From the NCBI GenBank assembly GCA_965235115.1, contig OZ249436.1, positions 23,314,001 through 23,378,000 of the forward strand: a stretch of DNA of 64,000 bases, read 5' to 3'. Shown here piece after piece: positions 9,440 to 63,900 of this stretch. Under the pieces are notes generated by a model. The model did not search any database. It was not told the DNA's origin and saw nothing but the letters and a program-made list of their open reading frames with translations. How positions within the stretch are numbered: the stretch's first letter is position 1; each line of letters starts with the position of its first letter. The DNA is from Laetmonice hystrix. Its lineage: Eukaryota. The position numbers and the translations under genes were made by a program.

Positions 9440-9608
9440 CAGTGCCGTGCCCAGAGATTGGTGCAGGGGGGTGTTATTCGTGCAGGGGGGGGGGGGGTTA
9501 CAGTGGACGGATCCAAGTGTTAGTTAGGACCTAAAAAACAAAAAGAAACAAATCTGTGGCACCCAGGGCGGTTACAGACACCCAAAAACCCCCTTGGGCA
9601 CGGCCATG
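9440..9608. mobile_element. Small MITE
   Basis: CAGTGCCGTGCCCA ... TGGGCACGGCCATG inverted ends. CACGT duplicated at 9435-9439 and 9609-9613. Confidence 0.6.
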
Positions 9609-17885: not shown

Positions 17886-18490
17886 TTACCCATGTTGATG
17901 GTTCAAGTGATATACAATGAAAGAAATAAAGTGTTTTAAACGATTCCCTCATTGAGACTATTGTCTGAACAGGGGAGAGAAGGGTGAGGCGAGGATTAGT
18001 CTCAACTTGCCGCACTGATCTGTTGAGTGCATAAATATATAATTAAACAGAACTACAGATTCATATATATACAAGTTAGGGCTCCTCTGCCCTATACGAA
18101 GGACTTCACATACTGGTAACAAGTTACAGATTCAAGCTGAGTGCATTAGAAAGGGCCAAGAAGGCCAAGATAATAGCACCACAATAATCACTGCATTGTG
18201 ATTGTTGTGTTATACAACACGGTATACGCATATAGTACACAAGTATAGGACTTAGCATGCCATCCAAGTGTGGATACATTTTACAATTCACTTTAAAGAT
18301 GCATTCGCATATCAAGGATATCCTAAGATGTAGTTTTACACATTCCGGAATTCATTTTAGATCTTCCTATCACGGTTGTGAGTTAAGCGAATGTGCAGCA
18401 GTAAACGTAGTATGGTAACAGTAGTCGTATACGCAGTATGGTGCTAGATTCGAATGTTACAATAATATTGCTTCAATACTTCCATTTAAT

Positions 18491-41249: not shown

Positions 41250-42149
41250 TGGCTCAGTCCCACTGGGCATTTTTGACCCCGGGGATGTTCTCCCGATGTA
41301 AATTGAAGAGCCTCGGGAGGCGTCGGGAACAGGTTCCCCGGTGTTCCGGGGAAGCCTCGGGAGCGTCGGGAGCGTCGGGAGCCATGTTGAACCTTCGGGA
41401 GGCATCGGGAGGCATCGGAAGAACTGTGAAAAAATTCAATGCCTGCCTTGTCGGTAAAACAGGCCGGGGAGGCAACCCCGTTGCTTTCCCGAGCACCGGG
41501 GAAGCCCCGGGGATGCTTCCCCTGAGCTTCCGCGAAACCTTCATCCCCCCGAACCTCGTGTGTTGTTTCGGCGAAGGATCAGGGAACCTCCGGGGATATT
41601 TTGATCTCCGCCACATGTACGGCGACCTCTCAGCGACCTGGCGGTGATACATTCCCGATGTGGGGTTGCATTCCCGAATATTCGCTAAAATGTCGGTGAT
41701 GGTTGAAAGTGCATTCTTCCAACACCTCCCCAATGCTTCCCCGAGAGTCCGGGAAAGCATCAGTGAATTTTTCGAACCATCCCCGGTGCCTCGGGGAAGG
41801 GTTGTTGGGGAGGCACCGGGGATGGTTCGCAAGTACTCACCGATGCTTCCCCTAATCTACGGAGATATTCTCCAGATGGTGTTTCAAATTCGAGGTTATC
41901 GATTATCGGTTATCCGATTTTCGGCGAAGGTACCCCGGGGCTTTCCCGGCCATCGGGAGCCATCCCCGATGATTCACGGTCACTGTTCGGAGGACAGTCC
42001 CCGGACCATCCCCGATGCCTAATGAGTTTCATCTGTAATGGGACTGCTCCGTTGTTTGGGCCAAACACATCGGGAGCATCGGGACCCATCGGGAGACAAT
42101 GTGTGTATTTCTACATCGCCGATGTTTTTTCCCCAGTGGGACCTAAGCA
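41250..42149. mobile_element. Family H2 MITE inserted in Gypsy pol between PR and RT
   Basis: TGGCTCAGTCCCACTGGG ... CCCAGTGGGACCTAAGCA; flanks TTA/TGA. Confidence 0.85.
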
Positions 42150-44233
42150 TGAGACACAGATGCCAACACACACACAAACGTGATATACGTGAGATGGCGG
42201 CTCACAGTAGCCCTACCACGAGACAAACATAGCAGTCCCGAATGGACGTACAGTTTGATTTGTCCGACTCAGCTCTAACTGACGACCAAAAAGACAAATT
42301 TTTGCACATGTTACACTCAAATCGGGATGTATTTGCCCAGACAGTGAAATACTTGGGGCACTGTACTCAGGTGGAACACACCATCGAACTTATACCCCAT
42401 AGTCATCCTGTATGCAGTCGCCCCTACAGACTGAACCCAAAGCTCCAGGATGTTCTCAACGAGCAAGTTGATGAGCTCCTGGATGCTGACATAATTGAAG
42501 AGAGCAACACTAGATGGAGATCACCCACAATACTGGTAAAGAAAAAGGATGGTACGTACCGTATGTGCATAGACTACCGTGAACTTAACAAAATAACATT
42601 TAAACAACCTTTTCCACTCAGTATGGCAGAGTCTATTTTCATTCATGTGGCATACCGTAAACCTCAGTATTTCTCCTGTCTAGATTTTTTGTCTGGGTAT
42701 TATCAGCAGTCCATCCATCTGGATTCAAGAGAGTACACAGGCTTCACCACAAGCTGGAGAAATTTTGTTTTTAAAAGGATCCCCGTCGGTTTAGTCAACG
42801 CCCCATTTGCATTTAGCCACCTAATCTCGACTGTCCTGTCCGAATTGACGCCTTCAATTTGCGCAGCCTATTTAGATGACATCCTCATCTATTCATCAAC
42901 GTTTGAGGAACATATAAAACATGTCGATGCAGTCCTCGGTCAACTCAGGAAAGCTGACCTCAAACTAAAACCCACAAAATGCGAATTTGCAAAAAGCAAA
43001 ATTGAGTTCCTGGGTCATGTACTCACACGTGAAGGTATCCTACCCCAGCGCAGCTTCTAGACAAAGTACAGGAGTTGGCCATACCAACCAATGTGAAGGC
43101 TGTACGTAAATTCATCGGCACGGTTTCTTATTATAAATCCTTCATTCCCAAATTCTCACAGATTACTAGACCATTGTATGACCTTACTAAGAAAAACAAA
43201 AAGTTTGTATGGACTCCAGAACTCTGAAAGATGCGCTTCTCGCACCTCCCGTACTGATTCACCCTGACTTTGACCGGATTGTCTCCCAAGTCGCCTTCGT
43301 CACTTCCGACCCAGACCGCGCGAGAGGCGAGAACCAAGATGGTGGTTAACGGGAGTACAGCTATTGTTTACATTTCCTTGACAATACATACTGAGCACAC
43401 GACATGGGTCCTAGATACATATTATGTGCGAGTACCTATACTAATATCATACCTACGCAAACCCCTCGTTTCTCCTCCATAAATGATCCCGGCTCTTTGG
43501 CGCCGAGCTCGGATTTATGCAGTCAAACTTGGAGAACGGGAATGCTTTGCTGTAGGCTACATTTTATTCATATAGTAACCCGTCGATCACCCCATGCAAT
43601 GGGGGACTCTACAAACATTATAATATGGTAAATGATAAATCTATATAAGGTGTAACTGATATATGTAACATAACATAATACCATAGTAATATAACACATA
43701 ACTGATAATACATTATATGGAAATACATAGTCCAAAATACATAGATATAGGTATAGTAATGCCTTATTAGGTGGAGACAATGCCACTAAGCGGAATCGAA
43801 GATGAAGCTGGAGCCACCAAAGAAGGCAGGAGAAAAGATTCCGAACGCAACCCGCTGAACCGCACCAGGAGCCAAATCTGAGCATTATATATACCGTCAG
43901 ACACAACTTGAAGAATCAGGCACAGATCATCTCCTGGCCTATAACGAACGGATAACGGAACCCATCATCATCCAGTCCTATTAGGGTGGTGTACCTGCAA
44001 CAAGCATAATCAAAGCTTTGAATCCTAAGACATACGGAAGAAGGCCTTAGATCCTTGGAGTCAACATCATAACGTCAGGTTAACAAGTTATAACACCCAG
44101 CTGCTTGACCAAACAGGAAGCACCCCCCCCCCCCATTAAACTCCATTACACCATGGCATACTTTACTTATCCCATTCTACCACCTGGGACCATACTATAA
44201 ATATTTAATAATAAATAACCGAACCAGGCAACA

Positions 44234-44377
44234 ATCCAAACTTCCTCGTCACTGAACCGGGCGACAAAGCTTCCTCGTCACTGCCCCGGACAACACATCC
44301 AAACTTCCTCGGCACTGAACCGGGCGACAAAGCTTCCTCGTCACTGCACCGGACAACACATCCAAACTTCCTCGGCA
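44234..44377. repeat. Short tandem repeat (~63-bp unit with CTTCCTCG(T/G)CACTG subunits)
   Basis: ATCCAAACTTCCTCG recurs at 44234, 44297 and 44360. Confidence 0.75.
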
Positions 44378-44392: not shown

Positions 44393-45456
44393 AGGCCCGG
44401 CCACACAGAGCCGACTACACCCAACCCGATGGTCGGAGGCCCGGGGGTCCAAATCGGCCAACTACTCAGTCAGTCTGGTATATGCCCAATCATGCCACAC
44501 TGAATGCGATCCGAAAGTCGGGAGTGGGATGCCACACTAGCGACAGCACTCGTGACCAGTATATACTATTGTAACTATTCATTCCCCTAGCGGTAGTTCC
44601 CACTCCGCCATGTTGTTTGTGTTGTCCCGCTCGCAGGGTATCTTGGGAGTAGCGTTTGTATGGTGCGCGCTGTGATTGGCTGGTAAGCAGCCCGACTGTT
44701 GAGTCTGGTCGGTAGGTATGCCACACAGGCCCGACTAGGCCCGACCAGACCAAACCGTTTGGTCGCTCATCTTGTGCAGGACAAGATGAACGACCGGACT
44801 GGTCAGTCGGTGAAAAACACCCGACTACGGCCGACTGACCGTGCCAGACAGCGCCGACTACCCCCGACTCGACTCCCCCAGACCAGCGGGTCGGGGGTAG
44901 TCGGCTCTGTGTGGCCGGGCCTCTAAGGCCCGGCCACACAGAGCCGACTACCCCCAACCCGATGGTCGGAGGCCCGGGGGGTCCAAATCGGCCAACGACT
45001 CAGTCAGTCTGATATATGCCCAACCATGCCACACTGAATGCGATCCGAAAGTCGGGAGTGGGATGCCACACTAGCGACACCACTCGTGACCAGTATATAC
45101 TATTGTAACTATTCATTCCCCTAGCGGTAGTTCCCACTCCGCCATGTTGTTTGTGTTGCCCCGCTCGCAGGGTATCTTGGGAGTAGCGTTTGTATGGTGC
45201 GCGCTGTGATTGGCTGGTAAGCAGCCCGACTGTTGAGTCTGGTCGGTAGGTGTGCCACACAGGCCCGACTAGGCCCGACCAGACCAAACCGTTTGGTCGC
45301 TCATCTTGTGCAGGACAAGATGAACGACCGGACTGGTCAGTCGGTGAAAAACACCCGACTACGGCCGAATGACCATGCCAGACAGGGCCGACTACCCCCG
45401 ACTCGACTCCCCAAGACCATCGGGTCGGGGGTAGTCGGCTCTGTGTGGCCGGGCCT
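44393..45456. mobile_element. Two head-to-tail copies of a ~530-bp PIF/Harbinger-like MITE (44393-44922, 44926-45456)
   Basis: TIR AGGCCCGGCCACACAGAGCCGACTAC; flanks TTA / CTA / TTA. Confidence 0.88.
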
Positions 45457-45861: not shown

Positions 45862-46555
45862 TGAAGTTGGGTGGACCCCCAAACTGATCAACAACACAAG
45901 TCCAGATTTGGAGTAACGACTTCTTTGTTCACAATAGTGCGTCGTCTTGGTGAGTGTGGCCTGGAGAGCTTTCTGTAGCGTTCGCTCTGGATCCCCGTTC
46001 CCGTCTATATCTTCCTAGCTAAGCCCCGTCCCTTTATACTGCTTGCCTATCCTCCCGGGTTTTATAGCGATCTATTTTTAGCGCTGAGCCAGCATCACAT
46101 GCCGCTGCGTCAGCCCCCGGGTTTTCCCCAGAATGCTGACTCATCAGTCACAAGACTCCCAGCTCATACTCTTAACTATTGATACCTATTTTTAGGTTTT
46201 CTGGTTCTAACCGGTTTTGACTGGTTCTGACCGGTTCTAACCGGTTTTGGCTGGTCTCGTGATGCTGACTCATCCGGTCACAGGACGCCAATATCCTGGA
46301 GTTGTTTACACCACTCTGCACTAACATCCGGGAGTTATTTATACTACTTATCTTAACATCCGGGAGTTGTTTACATTGTTCCACCACTGTGGTGCTGACA
46401 TCAGCATCCTGTTATCTACATCCTTCATCTGAACCATTACTGGAATTTCTATACATTCGTATATATATATCTATGTTTTTGCACACTTCAAGACTAACTA
46501 CTTTTAATATATATTCTTCTTATTATTTTACTATTCTAAACACGACCTTGTTACA
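45862..46555 (-). repeat. 3' LTR
   Basis: TG...CA bounded (TGAAGTTGG...TGTTACA); near-identical to 56762-57451. Confidence 0.92.
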
Positions 46556-46571
46556 TACCTTCCCCCCTTTT
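46556..46571 (-). promoter_or_regulatory. Polypurine tract
   Basis: Minus strand AAAAGGGGGGAAGGTA immediately before the 3' LTR TG. Confidence 0.85.
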
Positions 46572-46919
46572 AAAAAGAAGCTCCTTTCTTTTTTTATCTT
46601 ATAACTTTCTTTACAAGGTCGTGTACCCCAGTTATGTACATATATACATGGGCTCATGTCCACTACAATGTGGGTTTCTTTATATATACGCCCATCTTCG
46701 TTTTATCTACCACCTTGTGGTTTACATATATATTTGCTTATATATTATATTATTTGCTTATATATTTTCGATATACATCTCCCCTAGTGTTATAATTTTA
46801 CCCCTACCTTATCCTATATTTGGTTATTATATATAGTTCGAGTTATTCATTATTTTCCCCCCTAACTAACCTTCTTCCTATATATATACCCCTTAACAAC
46901 TAAGGCCACACTCACCGCG

Positions 46920-47562
46920 TTACAATGATGTTGGCATGCAATTCTTAATTCTACTACAGTCTTCTTCGACGTCCATTTCAGTTTCGTACAATAATCTTCG
47001 TGGTCTCCCTTCCCGGTGGACACCGTCCTCCCGCTCGCATAACATTGGCATCATTGTTCGTGCTGTCCCTCACTCTCCTCATCAGAGATCGCAATCACGT
47101 CCATATCGCTCCCTTCACTGGAGATCGTTATTATTGTTCCGTTACTTATTGTCTCCCACCGGTCCCCCCCGATCTCGACCCCCCCACATGGGCTCGGCCA
47201 TGGGGTCGAACCCGGGTCCGAACATCTCACCGGCCCATCGTCTCGCCCGATCTTCCATGGCTCCCGCTTCCTCCATCGTTCGGTCGACCCATTGTCGCGT
47301 TCGTGCCACCATATCCTCATTTTCAATTTCATTCAGTAGGTCCCTCGTCAGCTCATCCTCAGTTGACGAGGGGGATGCTGGGGGTGGCGGCCTCTGGGGC
47401 GCCACCCGTGCCACGTTACTTTTTTCGCCGTTCTCAAACGTCACTTGTTGGCCCTCCACTGTACGCGTATGCGTAGGCCCCCTCTGGTTGGTCAGGCGGC
47501 GGATCAGGTCTCCTAATGGCTCGGGGACTCCTGGGCCCTTGGATTGTTGGTTCAAGGCCATC
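46920..47562 (-). pseudogene. Accessory ORFx: acidic/proline-rich, probably frameshifted, unknown function
   Basis: MALNQQSKG...PPPPASPSSTEDEL... (to 47142), with further acidic segments in other frames (IITISSEGSDMDVIAISDEESE; ETEMDVEED). Confidence 0.45.
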
Positions 47563-48027
47563 TTGGTTTCGTTTGGTAGGCGGTAGGTCTTCAACTGTTA
47601 ATATTGTCGGGTCAGAAATTCTTTCCAGAATGAGTTGTGCAACCCGGCGCCCCGTCTTTATATGGAATGTCCTGGATCCTGAATTTGATATCAACATGCC
47701 GACGTTTCCTCGGTAGTCCGGGTCAATCACTCCCGCTTTTACATCTAGTTCATGACGTAGGGCTAGCCCTGATCGTGATGCTACCCTTCCGTATGTACCC
47801 GGAGGCAGGGCCAGTGCAATGTCAGTCCTCACTAGCACCCTCCTTAACGGATGTATGATGTATTCGTAGGCGCTATACAGGTCCAGGCCTGCCGCTTGTT
47901 CCGAGGCCCGGGTTGGCACGATCGCTTTTGGTGACAGCAACTTTACTTTCAGTACTTCATTGTTGGCTGACGGCGGGGTCTTCGGCACTTCACTTTTGTT
48001 CGGTAACCAGAACCTTGGGTCGCACAT
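47434..48027 (-). CDS. dut: dUTPase (trimeric type) of the LTR element
   Basis: AAGLDL, RSGLA, GVIDPDYRG, RVAQLI (motifs 1-4). Motif 5 is degenerate (RNQDGLEPT). Confidence 0.88.
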   Translation of the reverse strand: MCDPRFWLPNKSEVPKTPPSANNEVLKVKLLSPKAIVPTRASEQAAGLDLYSAYEYIIHPLRRVLVRTDIALALPPGTYGRVASRSGLALRHELDVKAGVIDPDYRGNVGMLISNSGSRTFHIKTGRRVAQLILERISDPTILTVEDLPPTKRNQDGLEPTIQGPRSPRAIRRPDPPPDQPEGAYAYAYSGGPTSDV

Positions 48028-49895
48028 CTTCTGTTAAAGATAACTCCACAGTAGGTTGATCACTTTTTGTCTTAGCCTTTTTCCCATACTTTCGTCTCGC
48101 ATAACTTCCCAGGATCAGGATACCCACAATAGCGATAATTACAACCAGCACCAGGGCCGTCAGGGGAATGGTTGGCTTTGTATTGATCCCTCCCCAGTAT
48201 TTACGCTCATTTCCTTTCAGCATCTCTTTTATATTGTGAATTGGTAGCTCCCCTATATCCTGAAGAGGAGTGCCAGCTTCTTAAATTTAGGGTATTCATT
48301 TTCCGACGCCGAATAATTCCAAATGCCCGGCATTCTGCGTCTGGCTACCATTTGTGCATCTAAAAACGTGCGTAGCTCTCTGTCTGATTTTTCCTTAAAA
48401 TAAGGAGGGAACGACAGGTATTCTGACAATCCCACGCACCCTGCTTTAATTTTGATTTCTGTGATCGGCGGGCTAACCGTCACCTCACGTTTGTGCCTGC
48501 CTTCAAGGTTATAGCAGGATTCAACAATTTTAAACGTTTTGTTCGAGGCCACCGCCCACATCCCCTGCACAATATATCTAGCAGTGGGTGCTGACTGAGC
48601 GGCTCTCAGAATTTTCTTACAATTTTGGGCGACGGCCTGCTGATTACTCTGATACAGCGCCATCACACACGATGGTACACTGGCCAGCGCCATTGCTGGT
48701 TTTCCAATCGTGCAATAATTTATCTCTTTCTGGTCGCACTGGGTACTTTCGAAAGGGGAAACATAAATAAAGTGAGCCTTATCCCGTGCAACCCCTATCA
48801 TTTCTGTTTCTAAAGCGTATGTTGCTTCTAGAGGCATGTCCCCTTTTATAACCGGCAAACTTATTATTTTCATTAGTTGGAACTCGTCTTCTGGTCTGAC
48901 TAGCGGGAAGGTAGTGATTATATGGAACTTTCCTCGCCCCGGTATCAATAACGTTGGCAGATGCCTGTAATACCAATTTAAGTCGTTGGTACTGTCGGGG
49001 GCAAGTGGAAGTGTAAGAGAATCAGGAGCCTGTTTCTGAATATCTTTTAGTAGGTCACCCAGGATGGTGGTGTTTATCAATACGGGAGGCAGGCGACCCC
49101 GGACACACTCTGTGACTTGTTCCTGTAATAATATCAGGGTGGAGTCCAACTCGCCTGGCTCAATGCGAGCGTTTGCAAGATTCCCTGATAGTTTGTCGCC
49201 CACCTTAATATAGCAACTTCCGTCCTTACCCCAGTTCTCAATATTGTCGTTAAAGCGTCGAGCTGACTCCCGAGGCTTGTAACGGCCCCCTGCAGTGTTT
49301 TTACCGCATTTCTATTTTTCTTTACTTCCACATGGGTTACATTTATTAGCGTCAAGCTTTGATCAATCGCGTGTACTATGCTTTGTTGATTTGCCCCTAG
49401 CCTCCTTATTTGCTGTCTCAATTTATTCAGGTCTTTCTCGGTCGCCGTGCCAAAGAGGGAGGACATAACTTCCCCTAATATTGGGAGTATAGACCTCTTT
49501 CCCCTGTGCCCTCTTTCTTTTTCATTTACTATATCCAAAATCCCTCTAAGTCGTTTGGTCAATAATTCCTGTCTCAGTACCATATCCCTTAGCTGCCTCT
49601 CTGCTACTTCGTCATGTCCGGCCCGTATTTTGTCAATTCTTTTCTTTGTCATCGCCGTTGCGTTAACTGTGGCTACCTCGGCCATAAATATCCTATTCTT
49701 TCTCCCTATTTCAGTTAAACTCCTATCGAGACTAGCTATTTGCTCCCTCCAGGGGGTGGTGTTTATCATAATGGTCACCACCCAACTTGAGTATGTATTA
49801 TACATTTTGTTTCGGGGGACAAAATACACCCCCGTCTGGCCCTGTGCCATAGTTGCAATCACACTAATGAGGGCTACTATCGTGGCCAACGCCAT
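47990..49895 (-). pseudogene. env: Envelope glycoprotein, class I fusion (baculovirus F / errantivirus Env-like), two frameshifts (~49150, ~48255)
   Basis: Signal peptide MALATIVALISVIATMAQG; furin site RGKR followed by fusion peptide SILPILGEVMSSLFGTAT; heptad repeat; Cys-rich region; TM LTALVLVVIIAIVGILILG plus basic tail. Confidence 0.87.
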
Positions 49896-49935
49896 CCTCA
49901 GGGTTTTTCGCCCTGCAAAAACAATAAAATATAAC

Positions 49936-52900
49936 TTTACTGGAAACGCTTCGTTAGCCACTTCGCGTAGCCTTCCAATTGGCTAGATTTATCTTTCATC
50001 CTAAATTCGTCTCGAACAGACATTAATAGGACTCCCAGCATATTTCTACCGGTCACTTGGCCCTTCTCATAGGCGGGGTCCCCAAACTTACTCCCCCAGC
50101 CCAGAACGTATCTCGGGTTGCTTCTATCAATTTATGGGGGTAAGTATCTATCAACACTTGGCGTTCCCATGGGTTTTGGCTGAATTTTAGATGCAATATC
50201 ATCTTTTTTATGCCCACCCGTTTTTGAAACCATTCTAGGGTTGGTCGCACTGTGCCGCCCAATTTCTTTGCTGCTGCCGCGTCATAGGCTTCGGCCACAG
50301 CCCGCGCTAGCTCTGGCTGGCTGCACTCATCACATTTTATGTATTGGTATAAGTGTTCGCTCGTGGGGAATGACCGCCCGTCAAATTGGATGGCGTTCTC
50401 GTTCTGGTGGAAGTTACTTAATACCGAATTCTCTCCGCAGAACGTTATTCCTGCCCTTGTCACCTTTTGTTTCACCGGCTCATCCGGCTGAACCGTTCTA
50501 TTATGGAGTATAGGCCCTTTTTCTATGCGTGCCTCCTCCCGATAGGCAGGTAGCATCCCTTCTCCTTCCCACCTTCCTAGAAGGCATTCTATGCTCATGG
50601 GAGGGTCCTCTTCTTTGAACCTTTTGTTTGAGTTTCCTGGCTCTATGTCTTCCCCTTTTCTCTTTCCTAAGTCAACCCTTGCAGGGTCATGACCTAGTTC
50701 CCCTGTCCTACTTTTCTTTGGATCTACGTCTCCTCTTCCAGGCCTAACCCTTTTTCCTAAGCTAGTTTCCCTGGGATACCTATTGGCGCCCCCACTAGCT
50801 CCTGGGAGAGGTAGATCACTGGGTCGCCCTTCATCATTTTTGGGCCTGCCCCTCTTCTCCCGTGTGCCCGTGTTTTGTTCCACAGGCTGTCTGACCCTTT
50901 TTCGGAGGTTATATCTGGGCTCATTATTAACTTCAGCCGGCCCGGGCAGGTGGGGTGGTCCCACCTCATCGTCAGTGTCCGGTAGCGGGGTGTCCTGCGC
51001 CGTCAATTCGGGCTCAGGGGCCCCTGGGACTTCTCCCCCTCTATCAGGTTCCCTTGGCGGGGCCACCGCCTCCGGTTCGACCAGCCTAGCTGACCTCACC
51101 GGTCGTTCCCGCCCCCCATCATCTAGGTCGAGGGGCATCCCCTTCGCTCGAGTTTTATGGAGAACGTGTCTGGGCCTGTCCCGATCAGCATCCCAGCACG
51201 CTTCTGGGTGTGCTAACCGCAAGTTTTCTACATGTACCACTTTTGTTTTTCCTGTTAACTGACTCTTTATCCTGTATGTTACAGGTCCCAGCTTGTCTAA
51301 CACCCGGTAGTAGGGTTGCCATTTCTCCATCAGTTTTGCCGATTCCTCCCGGTTTATCCGCTTGATTAGATAGTACACTGGGTCTCCTATGTCGAGCTCT
51401 TTTGCCCTGGCCTTTCCTTTGAGTCTTTCTTTGTTCCGCTCCCTACTTTCTTCCATGTTCCGTTTCGTACTTACAAAGGCTTGGTGTAGCCGTTGAAGCG
51501 TTGTGGGAACGTATTCATCCCCCATGTATTTCATCTTTGGCCTCAACAGGGTATCCATGGGGAGGACGGGGTCCCTCCCGTACACCATAAAGAAAGGGGT
51601 GTGTTTCGTGGTCTCATTTACTGCGGTCCTATATGCCAGCAGTGCCCCCGACACTGCCTGATCCCATTCCAGTCCCGGCGTTTTTGCCAGTATGTCATTC
51701 AATACCCTATGGAACCTTTCCGTTTTACCATTACTCTGCGGGTGGTACGGGGTGGCATTACAAAATTCTGTTCCCTGATCTGAAATGATCAATCGGGGAC
51801 ACGAGTGTCGTGGGATGAATTTTGCCAATAGTAGCTTAGCCACTGTTTGAGCGGACTTATCTGGGGTCGGGTAAGCCTCCGGCCACCCCGACAGGTGGTC
51901 CACAATTGTCACTATGTATTTATTGCCATGCTCCGTTTCCACAAACGGCCCGCACGTATCTATTCCCACTATCTCAAATGGGTACTGCGGGATTGGCATG
52001 TCCTGCATTTCAGCTGTATGTTTCCGCATGTTTCTCTGGCTACAGGGCACGCACTTTCGTACATATCCTACCACCGCTTTATACATGCCGGGAAAATAGT
52101 ACCTCGGGCGTAGGGTGTTATAGGTTTTATCTATCCCTAGGTGTCCTAGCTTGTCATGATAGGAATCTAGTAGATTTAGGATCATTCGGGCCGGAACGGC
52201 CAATTGCATATAATGTTCCGGGTCATACTTGGTTGGCGGAACTATGTGGTACAGTAGTCCCTCGTCCATGACAAAATTATCTAGCCCTGTCGTCTCATCT
52301 CCCCCTTCCATCCGCTCTATTATCTCCTTCCACTCATCATCTTGTCTCTGGAGGTGCGCCATCTTATCTCGATTTGTTTTTAGTTCTTCGTAAGCTTTAA
52401 GGATTGGTGTCTCTTGGGGTCCGTCTTCCCCTTCCTTTTCCACACTGTCCACCTGGTTTTCAGGTGTCAGGCTGTCTGTATCAATCATTGTGACCTCATG
52501 TTCTTTGACCACCGGGCGACCCGTTTTTCTTATCCTGGAGAGCATGTCGGCCCGAACGTTATTCTTTCCGGATCTAAATTGGATGTCGCACCCATACTCG
52601 TTTATTAATATGGCCCATCTTTGTATCTTCGTGTTTTTCAGAGGTGAACAGGGACTTCAACGGCTTATGGTCTGTGTAGACTATAAAAGGTGCCCCCAGA
52701 AGGTAGTGTCTCAAATGAGTTATGCAATATACTATTGCATACGCCTCCCTTTCGATACACGGCCATTTTTGTTGACACTTGGTCAACTGGTGCGAGATGT
52801 ATTGCACAACCCTGTCTCCGTCCTCATATGCCTGAGTCAGCACCCCACCCACTGCATATAGACTAGCATCCGTATATAATTTGTACGGCCTGGTGGGGTC

Positions 52901-54630
52901 CGTGTAGGTCAAGATGGGCACAGAGGTCAGTTTTCCTTTCAATGTGTCGAACGCTTCCTGAGCCCTTGCATCCCACTGAAATCGGGCGTTTTTCTTTGTT
53001 AGGCTCGTAAGGGGCTTGGCTATGTTCGCGTAGTCGGCAATAAACTTTCTATAGTATCCAGCTGCCCCTAAGAATGACCTGACCTCCTTAACTGTGGTGG
53101 GTGGTGCCAATTGCTTAATGGCTGCCACGTTCTCATCGTTGGGCCTCACCCCATCCCTCGAGATGATGTGACCCAAATACTTTATCTCTGATTTCAAGAA
53201 ATCACATTTCTTCAACTTCAATTTCAGTCCCGCCTGATCTATTCTTCTAAGCATCTCTTTCTGATGTTCCATGTGTCCCTCAAACGTCTCCGAGAACATG
53301 AGTATATCATCAATGATGGCAATCATTGATGGCATACAAAAGCCGTCTTGTTTTTGTCCTCCTCCTTGACCTCCACTTGCCAATATCCGCTTTTGAAGTC
53401 CAAAGAACTGAAATACTTGGACCTCCCTAGTGTGTCAAAAATGTCCTCGATTCTCGGTAGTGGGTATGAGTTTTTTACTGTGACATTGTTCAGTTTCCGG
53501 TAATCGACACAAAACCTCAGGGTCCCGTCCTTCTTGGGTACTATTACCACCGGGCTTGACCATGGGCCAAATGAGGGTCTGATCACCTGTGCTTTCAACA
53601 TCTCATCCACATGCTCTTCTATGACATGTTTCCTAGTGAGGGGTACTCGGTACGGCGCCTGCCGAATGGGAGCACTGTCCCCCGTGTCTATCTGTGCTTT
53701 GACTAATCTAGTGTGTCCCAGGTCAGAGTCAGACCTCGCGAACAAGTGACTATAATTTCTTATCACTCGTGCCAAGGCTTCCTTTTCCTCTGGTGACACG
53801 TGTCCTAACACCCTATCTAGTTCTTCTGCCTCAATCCCTCCACCGCGTTTTTGTTTTCTTCCCCATTGCTGATCCCTACTCAATTCCTCGGCCGCTCCCA
53901 GACATATGCCCCCTGGGACATATATCGGACTTCTCGTTGTGTTTATCAGTCCTATTTCGGTATAGCCCCTCTTTATCCCGGCTATCGTATCTGGCATCTG
54001 AACCGCTGGATGCCTCTCAAAGAAACTACACTTCCTGATCGGCTGTACTAGGCATCCAGACCGTGTTATTCCTCTACCTCCCACCTGCCGGCACCTCACT
54101 CTCAATAAGGTGTGAGGTGGTATCACTTGGCCTTTCATTGTCCTAATTACCTTATTCCTATATCCAGCCCCTTTAGTTTTCAATGCTACTGTCTCCTCTC
54201 CTATTATCAGCATCCTAGTGTCATAATCTATTTTCGATTTCATTTTCGCCAGTGCGTCACTACCCAAAATTCCTGGCCTAGACAATCCCTTGATAACTCG
54301 GAATGGAATTGAATGTCTGGTTCTTCCTATCCTTATTTTCATTGCGTAGGTTCCCAAAATATTTAATTGATGGCCGCTTGCCCCAACTGTCGGAGGCGTC
54401 CTCACATTCAACTTACTCATAAATCTCGCAGGTATTATCTTAAATGTAGCTAAGTCTATTGCTGAAATATCAGCTCCTGAATCTACCAACACATCCATAT
54501 GTACATTTCCCATTAGTACTGTGCACATGGGGCATTCCGACCCCCTCGAATAATCCCCCATCTTTTCTTCTGGATTATTCCTTATTCCCAAAACTATGGC
54601 CCTACTAGTCCCGGGAGCTCCTAGTTTCCC
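49936..54630 (-). pseudogene. pol: pol: protease, RT, RNase H, integrase, disordered linker and C-terminal NADAR domain (disrupted)
   Basis: LVDSGA; RFCVDYRKLN, LDFKSGYWQ, IIDDILM (deletion upstream); YTDAS, EREAYA, TDHKPL; HDKLGH..CVPC, IDTCGP, ISDQG, ERFHR; then SVLSNFH, TSEHLYQYIK, KFSQN, IEATRDTFW and, after a frameshift at ~50053, GRNMLGVLLMSVRDEF. Confidence 0.92.
54585..54630 (-). promoter_or_regulatory. -1 ribosomal frameshift signal (G GGA AAC + hairpin)
   Basis: CAG GGA AAC TAG at the gag end. The -1 frame GKLGAPGTSRAIVLGIRNNPE joins pol. Stem TCCCGGGACTA/TAGTTTTGGGA lies 7 nt downstream. Confidence 0.8.
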
Positions 54631-56651
54631 TGCGTGGGTCGGTCTTGTCTAAATCCCTGAGACCCACTTCTGTTATCAGCTCGCCCGCCCCCTACTTGGG
54701 CTGCGTCCCTTCTTGTAAAGCAATCTCGGGCATAGTGTCCCAGTCTGCCGCACTGTCTGCAAATAGGCCTGCCATCTGGCAGCCACCGGTTCACCGATCT
54801 ATTCTGGTTTCCCCCGCTTGTCCACCCTCTCTGCATGCCCCGACCCGACCTGACTATTGGTGGATTGTTTCCGTTTCTAAGGAGGTCTAGGACTAGTTCA
54901 TGTGGGCACTGAGCCACCTCTGGCTCTTCTCTCGTCTCTGTGTCCCGGCTCATTGCCTGCACCATTCCCGATACTGCGTCTGCCAACCTTTCGACCTTGG
55001 CATCAATCATTGCCATCTTAAATTCTATCCCCCCTGAATTACCTTTCTCCTGACTTTCCTCACTCCCTTCTATTTCGTCCACTTCCATAGGCTCTTCATG
55101 CCTTTCTACCCTATGCGGGCGTCTTATCTCAAACTGCCTACTCGTGGCATATTCTTCCCTTGCCAACCGGACTGCTCCGTCAAAGGTCTGGGGCCCTTCC
55201 ATAATTAGGCGGCGGGCCACAGTGTCGCTACGAATGCCATCTATAAAGGTTTCGGCCAGCTCTCTTTGTACCATAACATTTGTTCACTCAGCTTGCGTAT
55301 AGGCTTCCTCTGCCTGTTCTCGCACTCGTTCCGCATAGGACGAGATTGATTCACTCTCGGCCTGTTTTACTTTCTTGAGCTTTTGTCTTGCCACTTGTTT
55401 TTCTGCGGCATCTGCGAAACGTTCCCTAATTAGCTCTCTCAATTCAGGCCATGTCAATGCGGGGTTGTCTTTGCACTGCCGCATAGCAAAGTCGGGATTA
55501 TTCTGGATTATTCCTCATTCCCAAAACTATGGCCCTACTAGTCCCGGGAGCTCCTAGTTTCCCTACGTGGGTCGGTCTTGTCTAAATCCCTGAGACCCAC
55601 TTCTGTTATCAGCTCGCCCGCCCCCTACTTGGGCTGCGTCCCTTCTTGTAAAGCAATCTCGGGCATAGTGTCCCAGTCTGCCGCACTGTCTGCAAATAGG
55701 CCTGCCATCTGGCAGCCACCGGTTCACCGATCTATTCTGGTTTCCCCCGCTTGTCCACCCTCTCTGCATGCCCCGACCCGACCTGACTATTGGTGGATTG
55801 TTTCCGTTTCTAAGGAGGTCTAGGACTAGTTCATGTGGGCACTGAGCCACCTCTGGCTCTTCTCTCGTCTCTGTGTCCCGGCTCATTGCCTGCACCATTC
55901 CCAGTACTGCGTCTGCCAACCTTTCGACCTTGGCATCAATCATTGCCATCTTAAATTCTATCCCCCCTGAATTACCTTTCTCCTGACTTTCCTCACTCCC
56001 TTCTATTTCATCCACTTCCATAGGCTCTTCATGCCTTTCTACCCTATGCGGGCGTCTTATCTCAAACTGCCTACTCGTGGCATATTCTTCCCTTGCCAAC
56101 CGGACTGCTCCGTCAAAGGTCTGGGGCCCTTCCTTAATTAGGCGGCGGGCCACAGTGTCGCTACGAATGCCATCTATAAAGGTTTCGGCCAGCTCTCTTT
56201 GTACCATAACATTTGTTCACTCAGCTTGCGTATAGGCTTCCTCTGCCTGTTCTCGCACTCGTTCCGCATAGGACGAGATTGATTCGCTCTCGGCCTGTTT
56301 TACTTTCTTGAGCTTTTGTCTTGCCACTTGTTTTTCTGCGGCATCTGCGAAACGTTCCCTAATTAGCTCTCTCAATTCAGGCCATGTCAATGCGGGGTTG
56401 TCTTTGCACTGCCGCGTAGCAAAGTCGGCCGCCGTTCCTCTGAGCGTTCTCATGGCCATATATTTTAGTTGTATGTCATCATCTACTACCGGTTCTAGTT
56501 GCCTCATGTCCTTCAGCCAACCTTGAAACATTTTATAGTTCTCCCCGTTGGCTGGCCTAATCTGTGCCTTTTCCCCTTGAATCCTCATTTCCCTTGCCAA
56601 CTTTTCAAACCCCTGAGAGAAAACGTCTGCTGGGACCGCCATTGTGACCAC
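54621..56651 (-). pseudogene. gag: gag with a 933-bp tandem duplication and an in-frame TGA
   Basis: TWPELRELIRERF, KQAESESISSYAER, FIDGI, EPMEVD, CRQCGRLGHYARDC knuckle. The 3' part is present twice. Confidence 0.9.
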
Positions 56652-56742
56652 CGCTCACCCTTTTCCGTCGTCAAGACTCTCCTCCTTTCTAGGCTTTTGA
56701 CAATCTGATCTCAACCTACTCACCTTCCTCTGTCGTCTCCAA

Positions 56743-56760
56743 ATCCTGGTCACGGCACCA
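56743..56760 (-). promoter_or_regulatory. Primer binding site, tRNA-His-like
   Basis: TGGTGCCGTGACCAGGAT 1 nt after the 5' LTR; closely matches the complement of the metazoan tRNA-His 3' end as I recall it (TGGTGCCGTGACTCGGAT). Confidence 0.8.
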
Positions 56761-56761
56761 A

Positions 56762-57451
56762 TGTAGTTGGGTGGACCCCCAAACTGATCAACAACACAAG
56801 TCCAGATTTGGAGTAACGACTTCTTTGTTCACAATAGTGCGTCGTCTTGGTGAGTGTGGCCTGGAGAGCTTTCTGTAGCGTTCGCTCTGGATCCCCGTTC
56901 CCGTCTATCTCTTCCTAGCTAAGCCCCGTCCCTTTATACTGCTTGCCTATCCTCCCGGGATCTATTTTTAGCGCTGAGCCAGCATCACATGCCGCTGAGT
57001 CAGCCCCCGGGTTTCCCCCAGAATGCTGACTCATCAGTCACAAGACTCCCAGCTCATACTCTTAACTATTGATACCTATTTTTAGGTTTTCTGGTTCTAA
57101 CCGGTTCTAACCGGTTTTGACTGGTTCTGACCGGTTCTAACCGGTTTTGGCTGGTCTCGTGATGCTGACTCATCCGGTCACAGGACGCCAATATCCTGGA
57201 GTTGTTTACACCACTCTGCACTAACATCCGGGAGTTGTTTATACTACTTATCTTAACATCCGGGAGTTGTTTACATTGTTCCACCACTGTGGTGCTGACA
57301 TCAGCATCCTGTTATCTACATCCTTCATCTGAACCATTACTGGAGTTTCTATACATTCGTATATATAATTATATCTATGTTTTTGCATACTTCAAGACTA
57401 ACTACTTTTAATATATATTCTTCTTATTATTTACTATTCTAAACACGACCT
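56762..57451 (-). repeat. 5' LTR (outer few bp missing)
   Basis: Matches 45862-46548 but lacks the terminal TGTTACA. TATAAA on minus near 56933-56938. Confidence 0.9.
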
Positions 57452-57679: not shown

Positions 57680-60533
57680 ATGGCGCACTGTTGTGTACCG
57701 TTATGCACAAACGACGCCAGACGTGCAGAAAAGGATAGAGATAATGCAAAAAAGCTTTCTTTTCACAATTTTCCTAAAGACCAAGGCCTTAAAAAGCGCT
57801 GGATTATCGCCATTAGAAGAGACGAAGGGCCAAATTTCAAGGTAAGACAAGACTGTCAACCGAGCGATAATAGGTTATGGTAGCGGTTAGTCGTCGTCGA
57901 ATTTCTAGACTTTTTGAGAATTTCATCTAGGCTACTCAGATAACATCCATCAAAATACATTTACGTATCTGTTGAAGTAACACTCCTTTTTGTACTCTCA
58001 GCAAGTTTCAGTGCCAAAAAATGGTCTAAAACGTAACTTTGACAGTCGGCGTGAGTCGCTGGTGTAGCCTATTTACTCTGACCGTGACTGAGTCTGACTT
58101 GTTGGAGTGGGTTGCTGCCTGATCCCTTGGCCTTGTCTGCACGCAGACTTCGCTTAATCCAAAGTAGATTTTAGAGTTAGTCAGGGTCGTATTGGTAATT
58201 TATTGAAATCAAATCCTATTTAGTTGAGGGGACGAGAGGTGGTATAGGTTTCAATCAGTCATGTGCGCTATTCCGCTGGCGGGCCGCTCACAGTGACTGG
58301 ATGCCGTCTGGCTTCTGGGAGAGGCGACGGCTAAACCAAGCTGCCCGCGGTGCTAAACCCGTCACTCAAACCAAGGTGCGAGTTAACCAGGGCAAGTCGC
58401 CTGGGTGCGGGTTGAACTTGATAATTGTCATTACATTTTGGCTTCCTGCTGACCCCATGTAGCGGATGAAGACAGTCTCCCTGGTAGACCGCCTCCAGGC
58501 ATTTTGAACTTACCACAGCTAATGAGTCATGTAACTTATTGTAAGCTGAGGAGTAGGCTATACATGGTCAGGGATGACAGTTAACTATACTTATACTATG
58601 AATATGATGAAACTGGCAGGAGATCATTGGATGAACAATAGGCTAGCTTCATTTTTCCTTTCCTTTCTGCCGGTCTTAACTCTTTGTCTTATGCTGAGTT
58701 ATGGCAGGGTGGCACGGGCAGGGGCCACGCAAGGCAGCTGAGCCTGAGGCAGCTGCTTCGGCAGAATTTTTTTTAAACTGCTCAAATCTAAGCAAAGCTA
58801 TATTGCTGGCCACTGGCTTCAGCCAAAATAGTTAAATTATCTTCAAATTTAAGACCATGTTATGGGCATAATTACCGTTGGCATAACATTCATTTTGTTA
58901 AGTTTTTACTCTGTTTTGATTTACTACTGTGATTCATTTATTTTTGTACAGGTTACAAACAAAACGTATGTTTGTTCTGACCACTTCAAAGCAGAGAATT
59001 TGATGAAAACGTTAACAGGGATTCGAAAATTGAAGAAAGGTGCTGTTCCGTCTGTATTTGCATGGTGTGCCCATAGAAATACCAGGAACCCACCAGCTAG
59101 AAACACTGCAACAGTCGTCACCAGTGGAGTTTTGGATAATAGGTATAATTGTAAAAGAAGACTCTTTTAAATATCTCAATTTATAGGCCTATATAATATA
59201 GACAAGTTCAACACATACAAATAATAGGCATAAATGTCTATGTGTTGCAGTATCAGTATCAGCATAATTCTACTTTTTACCTTTTTAATCTTAAGATGTA
59301 TATTCTAGTGTTTGAGAATAGTTCCAAGTTTAAGTAAACTTGTAACATAGTGAAAAGGACAATAATATTTTTAGAATTACCTGTAATTTGATTGGAATTT
59401 TTAGCAAAAGAATATAGATTAAGTATTGTGTAATTTTATCTTTTTCATTCAGGCTGGTAGAAGTGAATGATGCAGCTTGTAACCACGCAAACTTCCATGA
59501 TTACTGTGTACAACCAAGACCAGCAGAAGAAAAACTGGAAGCAGCTCTTCAAAGGATTGCAGAACTGGAAGATGTAGTTCAGCAGCAGACAGTCAAGAAT
59601 TTTGGGATTTCGCGATTTACTCATGACCCTGAACTGATACGATTTTATACAGGATTTCCGACGTATGAAGTGTTCAAGGCGTTTTTTGAAAGCATTGCTC
59701 CACACGCTGCAAAAATGATTAGATGGACACAAGTTCAAAGACAGTGTAAAGGTCAAAGAGAGAGAATGCAGCACAGTGCAGTTCAAAAGTTGTTCCTTAT
59801 TGACCAGTTCTTCATGTTCTGTCATAAAATCAGGTTAGGGTCACTTGATCAGGACCTTGCAGACAAGTTCGGGGTCAGTCAGGCTACCGTCAGTAGAAAT
59901 ACAATTTCATGGGCAAACTTTCTGTATTGTCTGCTTGGATCACAACCTCTATGGCCTAGTAAAACCCAAGTGCAGAAACATATGCCCAAATCGTTCAAGG
60001 ATTCCTATCCAAATGTAAGAGTAATTTTGGATTGCACAGAGTTACGTGTTCAGGCACCGTCTAGTCTGGTACTCAGTTCCGAATTATTCTCTCACTATAA
60101 GGGAACCACCACTTTCAAGGCACTACTTGGAATCACCCCTTCAGGGTGTGTTTCCTTTGTAAGTTCACTGTATTCTGGCAGCATATCTGACAGACATATC
60201 ACAAGAGTTTCTGGTTGCCTTGATTTATTAGAACCTGGGGATGAAGTTATGGCAGATAAGGGGTTCCTGATAGAAGATCTTCTGGCTACAAAACAGTGCA
60301 AATTAGTTATACCATGTTTTTTGGCTAGAAAGGGGCAATTTTCTAAATCAGAAAACGAGCTGAATGCTAAGATAGCAAATTTGCGAGTTCACGTAGAGAG
60401 AGCAATACGAAGAATTAGAGGTTATCACCTGTTTGATTCAGTAGTGCCACTGAATCTTGCTGGTACCATCAACCAGTTGTGGAGTGTGTGCTGTATGCTG
60501 TCAAACTTTCAAGGACCATTGATTAAAAACTAA
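57680..60533 (+). CDS. THAP + HTH + DDE (DDE_Tnp_4-type) transposase, 3 exons (57680-57841, 58952-59142, 59453-60533), 477 aa
   Basis: GT-AG junctions keep frame. THAP CCVPLC..FHNFP..W..VCSDHF..AVPSVF; catalytic ILDCTE, MADKGF, HVERAI. Confidence 0.9.
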
Positions 60534-60998: not shown

Positions 60999-63900
60999 TT
61001 AGCATTCATTTTGCTTGGCCATGTAGGGTAAATAGTAATTAAAAAAGAATTTGTCTAATTTCTCTAACATGGTATTGAACTTTGGCTCATCAAAATATAT
61101 TCTCTCACAATGAAAGTCATTATTTGTATACACGAAGAAATCACACCATGGTGAGCCACTCAACCCCAGCTGGCCCATTATCTGGAAAAAATACTCGTGA
61201 TTTTCCTTTAAACAAAGATTGCCATCGTCTCCTTGCTTTAAATAGCCACAATGTACAACTGACTCCACACTAGGACATTTAATTTCCAACAACCCTTGAG
61301 ACTGCTCACAGTCGGGGTCAAAGACCCATCTATCTGGAGATGCACCTAAATGTATTAAATTAGGATTTGTAATCAGCCCTGATAAGTAGACATTTCTGCC
61401 AAATGTTTTTGCATACTTTTCTGCCGCAACAGGTTCCGTGTCCACTCCATGCTTCATTTCTTTTGTCTGAATATGTTTTTTTTTACTAAAGAGCTGAGAA
61501 GCTAGTGATTCATAATTACCTCTTCTGCTGCATACCCTTTTAAACACTGAAGCAGTTAGCCTGTGTTGTCTAAGATCATGCCACTCCTGACTACTACTCT
61601 GTCTTCTTGTCACCTTTTCAATTTCTATGCACTGGTTGACACCAAGAGAAAGACTCTCAAGAAGACATGTTTCCCCGTATGGAAGAGGACCATGAAAACG
61701 ACAATGGAGTGCTGGTGGGATGAATGAAGGTGAATTATGACCAGCAACTGTAATGATGTCTGATGAAGCATCTGCAGATGGAATAGATGATAACTGATAT
61801 GAGAGTACACTTCCTCTTGGAACTTCTCCATATATAGTGTTCACATACTGGATTTTAGATGGTGGTGTCCATAACTGCACTATCTGTGGCATGGGATTCA
61901 TTGGCTGCATTGAGGGCAGAAGCACCTGATCAAGTCTGATGTCTTTCAAAGGCTTTGCTACAGCATTATACAATTTCAGCGGTACACCCTCACTAGAGGA
62001 TTTCTTTTTCTGGCGGCTGTTTTGCATCTGCAGCTTCTGCACACGAATGCCTGTAACTGGTTTTGTAGTAAGACCTCTTCTTCTTGATGGGATATGCCAC
62101 TGCTGTAAAGAGTATAACGTTTATGAGAATAAATATTCGGGGTAATATGGTATAATAAAATGAATTATGCACATAGGAAACCAAACGAAAGATGTAGTCA
62201 TTGGTGGGCCTGCATCATCATGCATGCAACTAGCGTCACATTGAAAGGGACTCAGACAGAGCATTGCCCACAAAGCCCAGAAATAATGAAATCAATTAGC
62301 ACGCACCTAACATATTTAAAAAGTAACTTTCCTTAAAGAAAAAGTATTACTTCTTTAAAAAGAGTCATACTGAAATAAACTGCACATATACCTGGGGTTG
62401 TGATGTTTTAGATTCAACTGATGGCACTGCTTTCAACCCCAGATTTTTGTAGTGGACCAGCTGGTGAAGCACCGCTACTGTATGGTGGCACAAACTCTTC
62501 CCCCGAGCACATGAACAGGTGTTACTTTTAATAGTTACACCTTCAAAGTCAATCTGTGAAACATGCAATTTGCAATTTTACTAAGTAGACATTTATTAGC
62601 ACACATATTAATAAGAGTGCTTATGTGAGATATTTGTCGAATTGCAATAATATTTTTGTATTTTCCACAACTGTCTACAGAAAAGAACTGAAAGTGAAAC
62701 TGACCACTAAAACAGTGGTCTCTGGTAGTGGCCCACCGGTATATAAGATTGATATCCAACTTACTCTGATATTATGCGGTAATTCAGTTTTCTTTCTTGA
62801 CCTAAAGCACTGGGCTTTGAGAGACCACCTGTTTTCTTCTTGATGGCACACTGCAAAATTAACAGGCTAACGTTAGATGGGCATTGGGGGTGAAAACCAG
62901 ATCTACAATGTACATCTACACGTCAAGAGTAGTCTACTCTACTGCCACTACAATACAAATAGATTAGTGACAGTGGCAGCTCCAGCCAGGGTTTCATTTT
63001 TTAACATTATTTAACTAGACTCGGGGCCAGCGAGAGCGGGGTGTGGTGGGGGGCGTTGTAGTCCGACATTGGTGACAGCCCATTGCCATTGGTCCGACAG
63101 ACCAATCCCTAGCCTAGGACTAGGAGTATAGTATACTATACTATAGCCTATAGTATAGGTTAGCTAGTATACATGTACTACTAAATACTAATAGTAATAG
63201 TAACACTAAGCTATGCCATGGCTAGAGTTAGGATTAGGTTTATAACTTTAGCCCCTAGGCCAGGGCTAGGGTTAGTAGCCTACTAGTAGTACTACTACTA
63301 CTATTTGTAACTAGTAGTAGTAGTAGTAGGCCAAAGACAAAGTGGACTGTCAGATTAAAGCCAAAAGGACCTAGTCCTCTGCTAGAGCGAGAGGGGTGGG
63401 TCGCCCGACAGAGGCCAGGGATGGCTAGGGCCTAGACGGGTCACTAACTACCTAGATCTACACTACAGTTCTAGTAACTGTAAAGTTATACTATTAATAT
63501 TATAATTAGGCCCCAAATGGATGAGCGCCCGCCCCTGCCCCCAAAGCCAAAGGCCAAGGGTCCCGGTAAGGCCAAGGCCAGGGGAGATCCCCTCTGCCCT
63601 CTCTCTGACTCTGGCCCTGACAGTGACAATAGCTGTAACGTTAGGCCTAGAATAGGTTTGACAATTTCTTGGTTTGCTAAGTACTAACTGTCACTAGTAC
63701 TAGTAACTAGTTCTAGTCTAATGCTAAGGCTAAGCTACTACGACTACGAGGACTACCGTTACGACTTACGTTAACGGTTAGGCCCAGAGCCAGACAGTCG
63801 CAGACACAGCCACAGGACAGTGACAGTGTAGTGACAGTGTAACGTCGTTAGTGTAGTGTAGTCAGTGGTAGACTGTCGGATAATAAAAATTACCTTTGAA

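Follow-up and report, generated by a model that had tools for sequence, protein, structure and literature searches.

NADAR, dUTPase and an orphan gene in a low-copy family of env-carrying Ty3/Gypsy endogenous retroviruses from a marine invertebrate

Ty3/Gypsy elements with an env gene, the 'ancient errantiviruses', have been described across non-insect metazoans, including many polychaete elements with an F-type env (Chary and Hayashi, eLife 2026, PMC13524379). A duplicated 'pseudo' RNase H characterises the insect errantiviruses (PMC13524379). Among the Gypsy-like long terminal repeat (LTR) elements of bdelloid rotifers, Juno, Vesta and TelKA encode a dUTPase and varied captured third open reading frames (ORFs), and a paramyxovirus-like F env is found in one bdelloid lineage (Rodriguez et al. 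2017, PMC5408684). In the accounts of rotifer and fungal elements, dUTPase is described only as a domain of Pol (PMC5408684, PMC2864245). NADAR domains are reported in a Gypsy lineage of Ectocarpus (YbiA-type) and in ORF1 of an oyster Tx1 long interspersed element (LINE) (PMC12477816). In phages, NADAR enzymes undo the ADP-ribosylation of guanine by DarT1 (PMC11825919, PMC11125620), and the role of the animal domains has been called unclear (PMC11125620). Here, we analysed a stretch of 64,000 nucleotides of the genome of Laetmonice hystrix (assembly GCA_965235115.1, contig OZ249436.1, positions 23,314,001 to 23,378,000 of the forward strand), hereafter the window. We concentrated on the retroelement at positions 45862-57451, which carries NADAR, an F-type env, a dUTPase and an orphan gene, ORFx, between two LTRs.

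We conclude that this element is very probably a dead insertion of a low-copy, env-carrying ('errantivirus-like') Ty3/Gypsy endogenous retrovirus of a marine invertebrate, and that its additional genes form part of the family and have been retained by selection. The layout of the family is 5' LTR, tRNA-His primer binding site (PBS), leader, gag, pol, F-type env, dUTPase, ORFx, polypurine tract (PPT) and 3' LTR, where pol consists of protease (PR), reverse transcriptase (RT), RNase H (RH), integrase (IN), a linker and NADAR. All long frames between the LTRs are on the minus strand. An earlier note, made from the letters of the window without database searches, had proposed the order gag-pol(NADAR)-env-dUTPase-ORFx between the LTRs of an env-bearing Ty3/Gypsy element. 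Pfam matches and the repeats confirm this order, and the boundaries it gave (45862..57451) are exactly the outer edges of the LTRs. The components of the element are the following.

56762-57451, minus strand: 5' LTR, without the first 7 bases that are present in the 3' LTR and in other copies
56744-56760, minus strand: PBS, TGGTGCCGTGACCAGGA, one base after the 5' LTR and complementary to the 3' end of the host tRNA-His(GTG)
54621-56642, minus strand: gag (Pfam Retrotrans_gag and a CCHC knuckle, zf-CCHC), with its ATG at 56642
54229-54531, minus strand: aspartic protease (Pfam RVP, E 4.6e-5)
53162-53541, minus strand: reverse transcriptase (RVT_1, profile positions 1-97 and 149-205, in two frames)
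52616-52975, minus strand: RNase H (RT_RNaseH, E 3.9e-31)
51214-52197, minus strand: integrase (Integrase_H2C2 finger, rve core and the SH3-like module Integrase_p58_C, all Pfam)
50434-51213, minus strand: linker between IN and NADAR, of low complexity, basic and proline-rich, with a KRGRPK stretch
50000-50433, minus strand: NADAR (YbiA-type), C-terminus of pol, residues 742-857 of the 867-residue frame 50053-52656 (Pfam E 4e-16); the pol stop is at 49937
47990-49895, minus strand: env, an F-type class I fusion glycoprotein, here in three frames with breaks near 49153 and 48269
47434-48027, minus strand: dUTPase, a separate gene (Pfam E 4.4e-35 in the frame 47434-48033), overlapping the end of env by 38 bases
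47051-47561, minus strand: ORFx, an orphan gene overlapping the 3' end of dUTPase, frameshifted here (frames 47142-47597 and 47051-47332, no Pfam match)
46558-46571, minus strand: PPT, AAAAGGGGGGAAGG, two bases before the 3' LTR, whose start is TGTAAC
45862-46555, minus strand: 3' LTR, TGTAAC...ACTTCA

The element is bounded by direct repeats of about 690 bp (45862-46555 and 56762-57451), the LTRs; over 676 aligned bases they show 7 mismatches, and they also differ by 4 indels. In a copy on another contig, C10, the LTR ends are TGTAAC...ACTACA and the insertion is flanked by a 4-bp target duplication, AAAT. The TG...CA ends of the LTRs, the PBS next to the 5' LTR, the PPT next to the 3' LTR and the 4-bp duplication (in C10) are those of Ty3/Gypsy elements, and so is the order PR-RT-RH-IN of the Pol domains, which Pfam matches place in the Metaviridae arrangement. 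When the RT of C10 was used as a query, its closest solved relatives were the Ty3 RT (4ol8, E 1.8e-68) and the Ty3 Gag-Pol (7q5b, E 1.9e-67), followed by Caulimovirus-like and foamy enzymes (1e-46 to 1e-40). The third ORF, after pol, encodes a viral fusion glycoprotein, as in the env-carrying Gypsy elements that are errantiviruses in the wide sense of PMC13524379. We rejected membership in Troyka, since the ends are TG...CA with a 4-bp duplication and those of Troyka are CG...CG with 3 bp (PMC12440569). The complement of the PBS (a matching 14-mer) lies at the 3' end of a tRNA-His(GTG) called by ARAGORN in a tandem array on contig C2. This array (G000:C2:9016406-9034104) matches the 3' end of tRNA-His at no fewer than 24 places, spaced alternately by about 750 and about 1030 bp; the one member that was checked is tRNA-His(GTG).

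The genome (627 Mb in 35 contigs) has about 20 places with LTRs of this family. Four copies cover most of the element (the window copy, C19, C4 and C10); C5 holds shorter pieces, and only relics are seen on C8 and C29. The three fragments at 26 Mb on C5 are rearranged segmental duplicates, and the C8 relic is only a fragment from ORFx to the LTR, beside a zinc-finger gene. The divergence between the two LTRs of a copy is 0.27% in C10 (2 of 750 bases), 1.04% in the window copy and 4.1% in C19, hence the family moved over an extended period. NADAR DNA follows IN in three of the four copies that reach this part (window, C19 and C4); the fourth, C10, has an internal deletion of 1.17 kb that runs from the linker into env and spans NADAR. 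The dUTPase is present at 8 family places and the dUTPase/ORFx block on 5 contigs. In every copy that covers them, the extras are found at the same junctions and no repeats flank them. In particular, env and dUTPase are present in the other family members and have neither LTRs nor duplications of their own there, so the refuting test that the earlier note had set for itself (absence of these genes from other members, or target duplications of their own) does not refute it.

We then computed the ratio of non-synonymous to synonymous rates (dN/dS) of each gene against the window copy, except for ORFx, where relics were used. The ratios are 0.11-0.66 in gag and pol, 0.19-0.39 in the IN-NADAR linker, 0.25 in NADAR (against C19), 0.11-0.39 in env pieces of at least 190 codons and 0.06-0.49 in the dUTPase outside its overlap with ORFx. 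The values of ORFx are given below. NADAR, dUTPase and ORFx thus belong to the family and evolved under purifying selection.

The NADAR domain is more complete in copy C4, where the match covers the whole profile (positions 9-163 of 163, E 1e-25) and E. coli YbiA is matched with E 4.6e-10; in the window copy the last helix is in another frame. The stretches PTSEH, LIEAT and D..W align with E. coli YbiA. The YbiA family is marked by a Glu in the last strand of NADAR, one of the conserved catalytic residues (PMC11125620). Its identity with two other NADAR domains of the same genome is low (30% for that of another Gypsy family, 28% for that of a LINE ORF1), suggesting that these are separate or old captures. 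A search for relatives of this part of pol among proteins of 476-1518 residues gave none at E <=0.001, but this was a word search limited by length and is no evidence of absence.

Among solved structures, the dUTPase comes closest to cellular enzymes of animals (7bpd, E 8e-42; human 2hqu, E 5e-41), and no retroviral dUTPase is found among the best 60 of 76 PDB matches. This suggests that the gene derives from a cellular-type gene acquired in the past. Its identity with the dUTPase embedded in the Pol of another Gypsy family of the same genome is 54%. Trimeric dUTPases have five conserved motifs, the fifth with the consensus RGxxGFGSTG. Motifs I-IV are intact in the window copy. The presence of dUTPase and NADAR on one element could be read, as the earlier note did, as a toolkit that sanitises cDNA; this is plausible and is compatible with the catalytic motifs and the purifying selection.

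A sister family within this genome, L035 (G000:C11:22929000-22938999), has gag, pol and an F-type env of 665 residues, and shares with the window family the tRNA-His PBS and the leader splice donor; the two are 54% identical in IN and 36% in env. The pol of L035 ends without NADAR and the family has no dUTPase. Hence, only the lineage leading to the window family gained, or retained, these two genes. After its env, L035 has an overlapping frame of 200 codons with no Pfam match, whose similarity to ORFx is not significant (E 0.03).

Several observations weigh against the explanation given above. No target-site duplication can be recognised at the window copy, because its 5' LTR lacks the first 7 bases, and none of the copies read through is intact. 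The dN/dS of NADAR is 0.70 against C4, on only 14 changes. In the 53-codon overlap with ORFx, the dUTPase frame has a dN/dS of 0.78-5.3, partly because motif V is degraded in the window copy; this motif is RNQDGFGSTG in C5a and C5b, where FGSTG is kept. A comparison of ORFx with 1.84 billion representative proteins gave no homologue, nor did Pfam or the Atlas, and its structural model is of low confidence (predicted local distance difference test, pLDDT, 49.4), so that it was used for a hint of secondary structure only. Two families of ADP-ribosyltransferases that modify DNA bases, PF03496 and PF14487, have no match in the host genome; these negatives are weak because exons are short and the search controls were not recovered. 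Finally, all splice and frameshift sites discussed below are predictions made from sequence.

Could the extras be decaying passengers, captured once and never useful, in which case the 'toolkit' would be an illusion? The family is small, with about 20 LTR matches and no intact member among the copies read. Its youngest dated insertion, C10, has neither NADAR nor the N-terminus of env, and therefore a copy lacking both may still have moved with help. Moreover, the first Gly of the motif V consensus is replaced by Asn in all copies of the dUTPase. These features speak for useless cargo. However, all three extras have a dN/dS well under 1, in copies that have diverged by dS 0.03-1.1. Other retroelement families of the same genome took up dUTPase and NADAR independently, and the repetition of such uptake argues for a benefit. 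We therefore regard passengers as an unlikely explanation, and favour genes that are integral to the family and were maintained by selection.

Another reading is that ORFx is no gene but a chance open frame in the 3' untranslated region. The null searches (Pfam, the Atlas, the 1.84 billion representatives), the poor model and the broken frame of the window copy are all compatible with such a frame. Yet, ORFx is open over 181 codons, stop to stop, in four copies (C10, C5a, C5b and C5c), and the dN/dS of its own frame is 0.09-0.26 over 124-126 codons. When it is compared with relics that are 74-86% identical in DNA, the own-frame dN/dS is 0.09-0.17 over 124 codons without stops (33-46 synonymous versus 16-50 non-synonymous changes), whereas the two other frames of the same alignments give 1.1-3.3 and 6-14 stop-bearing codons. 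The protein is small and acidic, and its two C-terminal hydrophobic-acidic motifs, IITISSEGS and VIAISDEESE, persist at identities as low as 70%, the most distant relic included. A chance frame is thus very unlikely, and ORFx, a selected gene without relatives, is a candidate for a new accessory function. The low-confidence model has a helix at residues 78-126 and two short strands on the conserved motifs. These motifs presumably resemble SUMO-interaction motifs, in which a V/I-x-V/I-V/I core is flanked by Ser or acidic residues. Because of this likeness, ORFx may act on host silencing, which is speculative and should be taken as a lead rather than a finding. A complex prediction of the ORFx C-terminus with the SUMO of another organism returned 'no answer'.

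That the dUTPase and ORFx block, or NADAR, is a secondary insertion or a piece of a host gene that landed in the window copy alone has a negligible probability: the dUTPase is indeed closest to animal cellular enzymes (7bpd, human 2hqu) and is missing from L035, but 8 family places on 5 contigs carry this block, with identical env overlaps and identical spacing to the PPT and the LTR, and it lacks flanking repeats of its own and evolved under purifying selection, so a private event is refuted and an ancient capture by the ancestor of the family is part of the best explanation.

The assignment of env rests on sequence features and profile matches. The frame 49134-49982 matches the Pfam family Baculo_F with 34.4 bits (cut-off 24.1, E 1.3e-8), and the frame 48253-49311 with 17.2 bits, below the cut-off. 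The features expected of a fusion protein are present: a signal peptide, a furin site followed by a fusion peptide, a long helix, a C-terminal transmembrane helix and the profile match, together with six N-glycosylation sequons.

49839-49895, minus strand: signal peptide of env
49494-49514, minus strand: furin-type site of env, RGHRGKR
49440-49493, minus strand: hydrophobic fusion peptide of env, SILPILGEVMSSLFGTAT, directly after RGHRGKR
48101-48163, minus strand: transmembrane helix of env

In C10 and C5a, the DNA that matches the broken stretch of env is one open frame. Over 496 residues, the C5a frame shares 36% identity with the env of L035, which is open (665 residues) and matches Baculo_F with E 6.6e-23. 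A profile of six env proteins matches the PDB entries 9w4d and 9w4c with E 9e-16; these were deposited as 'fusion protein', and since a literature search with the 9w4d codes gave only unrelated matches, 9w4d is known by its deposited title alone. A search for relatives of env gave only 2 matches. The AlphaFold2 model of the 534-residue open frame of C5a, built with 6 sequences, is too poor to confirm the fold (pLDDT 45.7), which is why the family was assigned by sequence. All env features that the earlier note had named (signal peptide, RGKR furin site, fusion peptide, transmembrane helix) were retrieved. Its idea of a once-infectious particle does not apply to the window copy, because this copy is defective throughout, and the search for intact copies found none among those read through.

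The damage, which the earlier note had missed, concerns nearly every gene of the window copy, with frame breaks in pol, NADAR, env and ORFx. An in-frame stop interrupts gag at 56214-56216, and a direct duplication of about 0.93 kb covers most of this gene (54565-55431 repeats 55498-56364); both are absent from the other copies. The middle of RT lacks about 100 bp and changes frame, the other copies being about 105 bp longer. There is another change of frame between RNase H and IN, and the catalytic core of IN has a gap of 16 codons. Three sequencing runs of one sample provide only short contigs in which the family copies are mixed, and these say nothing either way on the frame breaks or the gag duplication. 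The linker that follows IN (50434-51213, minus strand) has the sequence EKRGRPKND, which we take to resemble the core of an AT-hook. A genuine AT-hook at this place could hold integration complexes on AT-rich DNA. In chromoviruses, the tethering of integration complexes is done by chromodomains.

Several signals suggest how an intact member would express its genes.

56718-56726, minus strand: putative 5' splice site of the leader, AAG/GTGAGT, between the PBS and the gag ATG, with the exon end at 56724
54624-54630, minus strand: slippery heptamer GGGAAAC at the gag stop (...CAG GGA AAC TAG), with pol in the -1 frame; putative frameshift site
49913-49930, minus strand: putative 3' splice site of env, consisting of a pyrimidine tract with AG, TTATTGTTTTTGCAG/G; it directly follows the pol stop (49937) and lies 18 bases before the env ATG at 49895

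The leader donor is unchanged in C19, C10, C5a and C5e, and the leader of L035 has a similar site, GGAAG/GTGAGT. The heptamer is followed, 8 bases further, by an 11-bp stem-loop (54586-54616; fold -23.1 kcal/mol, z -2.48). The env acceptor is the same in C4. The ATG of the dUTPase (48027) lies within the last codons of env, directly after a candidate acceptor, TTATCTTTAACAG/, and the ATG of ORFx (47561) lies within the 3' end of the dUTPase. In an intact member, the full-length RNA would yield Gag and, by -1 frameshifting at GGGAAAC, Gag-Pol. The leader donor joined to the acceptor 18 bases before the env ATG would produce an env mRNA. Drosophila gypsy makes its Env from a spliced subgenomic RNA. 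The dUTPase and ORFx, each overlapping the end of the preceding gene, could, as in complex retroviruses, come from additional messages that are spliced or reinitiated. Cleavage of Env at RGHRGKR would free the fusion peptide and particles would enter cells. During reverse transcription, the dUTPase would lower the nearby concentration of dUTP and reduce the uracil in the cDNA. NADAR would ride with IN on Pol and remove ADP-ribose from guanine (or other bases) on the nucleic acid of the element. A functional reading where dUTPase acts against uracil in cDNA, NADAR against base ADP-ribosylation and ORFx against host silencing is plausible from homology and selection.

F-type env frames are numerous in this genome and several are open. 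NADAR gave 741 first-look candidates, and 150 of the 150 that were scored exceeded the cut-off; the three that were inspected lie in LINE ORF1 adjoining endonuclease-RT frames. One such LINE is in the window itself (15028-20305, minus strand), where ORF1 (18491-20305) ends in NADAR (E 4.6e-28) and is followed by endonuclease (16440-17885) and RT (15028-16500) frames. A Gypsy family represented by L026 (G000:C1:23015000-23024999, 4315-9294) and L027 has a Pol of 1660 residues ordered PR-NADAR-RT-RH-IN, which is a second, independent position of NADAR in the LTR elements of this genome. In yet another Gypsy family, L028 (G000:C8:25540000-25549999, 4546-9998), Pol is ordered PR-dUTPase-RT-RH-IN and is followed by a 238-codon frame of no known family and then by an F-type env, combining the rotifer-like position of dUTPase with env.

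Overall, NADAR was probably taken up at least three separate times in this genome: in LINE ORF1, in a Gypsy family where it separates PR from RT, and in the window family, where it follows IN. That unrelated retroelements of a single genome have repeatedly acquired this domain points to a pressure, so far unrecognised, on the nucleic acids of retroelements in marine invertebrates, and provides a concrete setting to ask what animal NADAR domains do. One may imagine an arms race in which a host system ADP-ribosylates the bases of retroelement RNA or cDNA, with NADAR as a counter-defence, the eukaryotic counterpart of phage anti-DarT. The window family, with its dUTPase and with ORFx as perhaps a SUMO-binding antagonist of silencing, would then be a truly 'complex' metavirus with spliced accessory genes. 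We consider this scenario possible but doubtful.

The surroundings of the element contain other repeats and mobile elements. Beside the 3' LTR are a tandem pair of 63 bp and a direct repeat spaced by 534 bp (300 bases reported, 98% identical), at 44234-44359 and 44440-45273. Just upstream of the studied element, the protease and RT frames of another, unrelated LTR element occupy 40428-43060 (plus strand), and a further RT frame is found at 1759-4122 (minus strand). On the other side of the element, a DDE transposase frame of PIF/Harbinger type (59418-60533, plus strand; DDE_Tnp_4, E 7e-40) adjoins a frame of a YqaJ-like recombinase/exonuclease (60999-62120, minus strand; E 1e-20).

How does the family compare with known systems? 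With the ancient errantiviruses it shares the order gag-pol-env, the F-type env and LTRs of a few hundred bases, and several of the polychaete elements described have the same last 12 bases of the PBS, GTCACGGCACCA, matching tRNA-His(GUG) (PMC13524379). These elements have three ORFs, whereas the window family adds two genes after env and NADAR on pol; neither dUTPase nor NADAR is mentioned in the main text of that work (PMC13524379). Drosophila gypsy and ZAM, of the genus Errantivirus, likewise have an F-type env related to baculovirus F (PMC13524379). The rotifer dUTPase is a Pol domain between PR and RT (PMC5408684), in contrast to the separate gene after env found here. In the brown alga Ectocarpus, NADAR is in the N-terminal part of Pol of an element described without env, whereas here it is C-terminal, after IN, in an env-bearing animal element; the NADAR of the oyster Tx1 ORF1 resembles instead that of the window LINE (18491-20305) (PMC12477816). 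Among the matches listed in our full-text literature search, this was the only paper pairing a NADAR domain with a retroelement. Phages provide another case of mobile elements carrying a NADAR hydrolase (PMC11825919, PMC11125620), and here too it may serve to reverse a modification that the host puts on the DNA of the element; in phages the attacking transferase is identified, whereas the search made here for two families found none, a weak negative.

In the literature searched, which left out most supplementary files of PMC13524379, we found no stand-alone dUTPase after env, no C-terminal NADAR of Pol and no ORFx. Each kind of extra is known elsewhere; it is their combination and layout that were not found. 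The earlier note had called this gene order unusually complex for Ty3/Gypsy, which is half right, since F-type env, Pol dUTPase and NADAR are each published and also occur in other Gypsy families of this genome. To our knowledge, insect errantiviruses have no dUTPase, NADAR or genes after env. The logic of the family is shared with complex vertebrate retroviruses (Retroviridae), which also combine a dUTPase, overlapping 3' accessory genes and a leader donor. Non-primate lentiviruses and betaretroviruses have their dUTPase within pro or pol, small overlapping 3' accessory genes and a leader splice donor. The dUTPase of the window family is closer to cellular animal enzymes than to those of retroviruses. 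With six coding units, overlapping 3' accessory genes, a putative leader donor, env acceptor and -1 frameshift site, and two enzymes of nucleotide hygiene on one element, this family suggests that env-carrying Gypsy elements outside insects can match complex vertebrate retroviruses in gene complexity.

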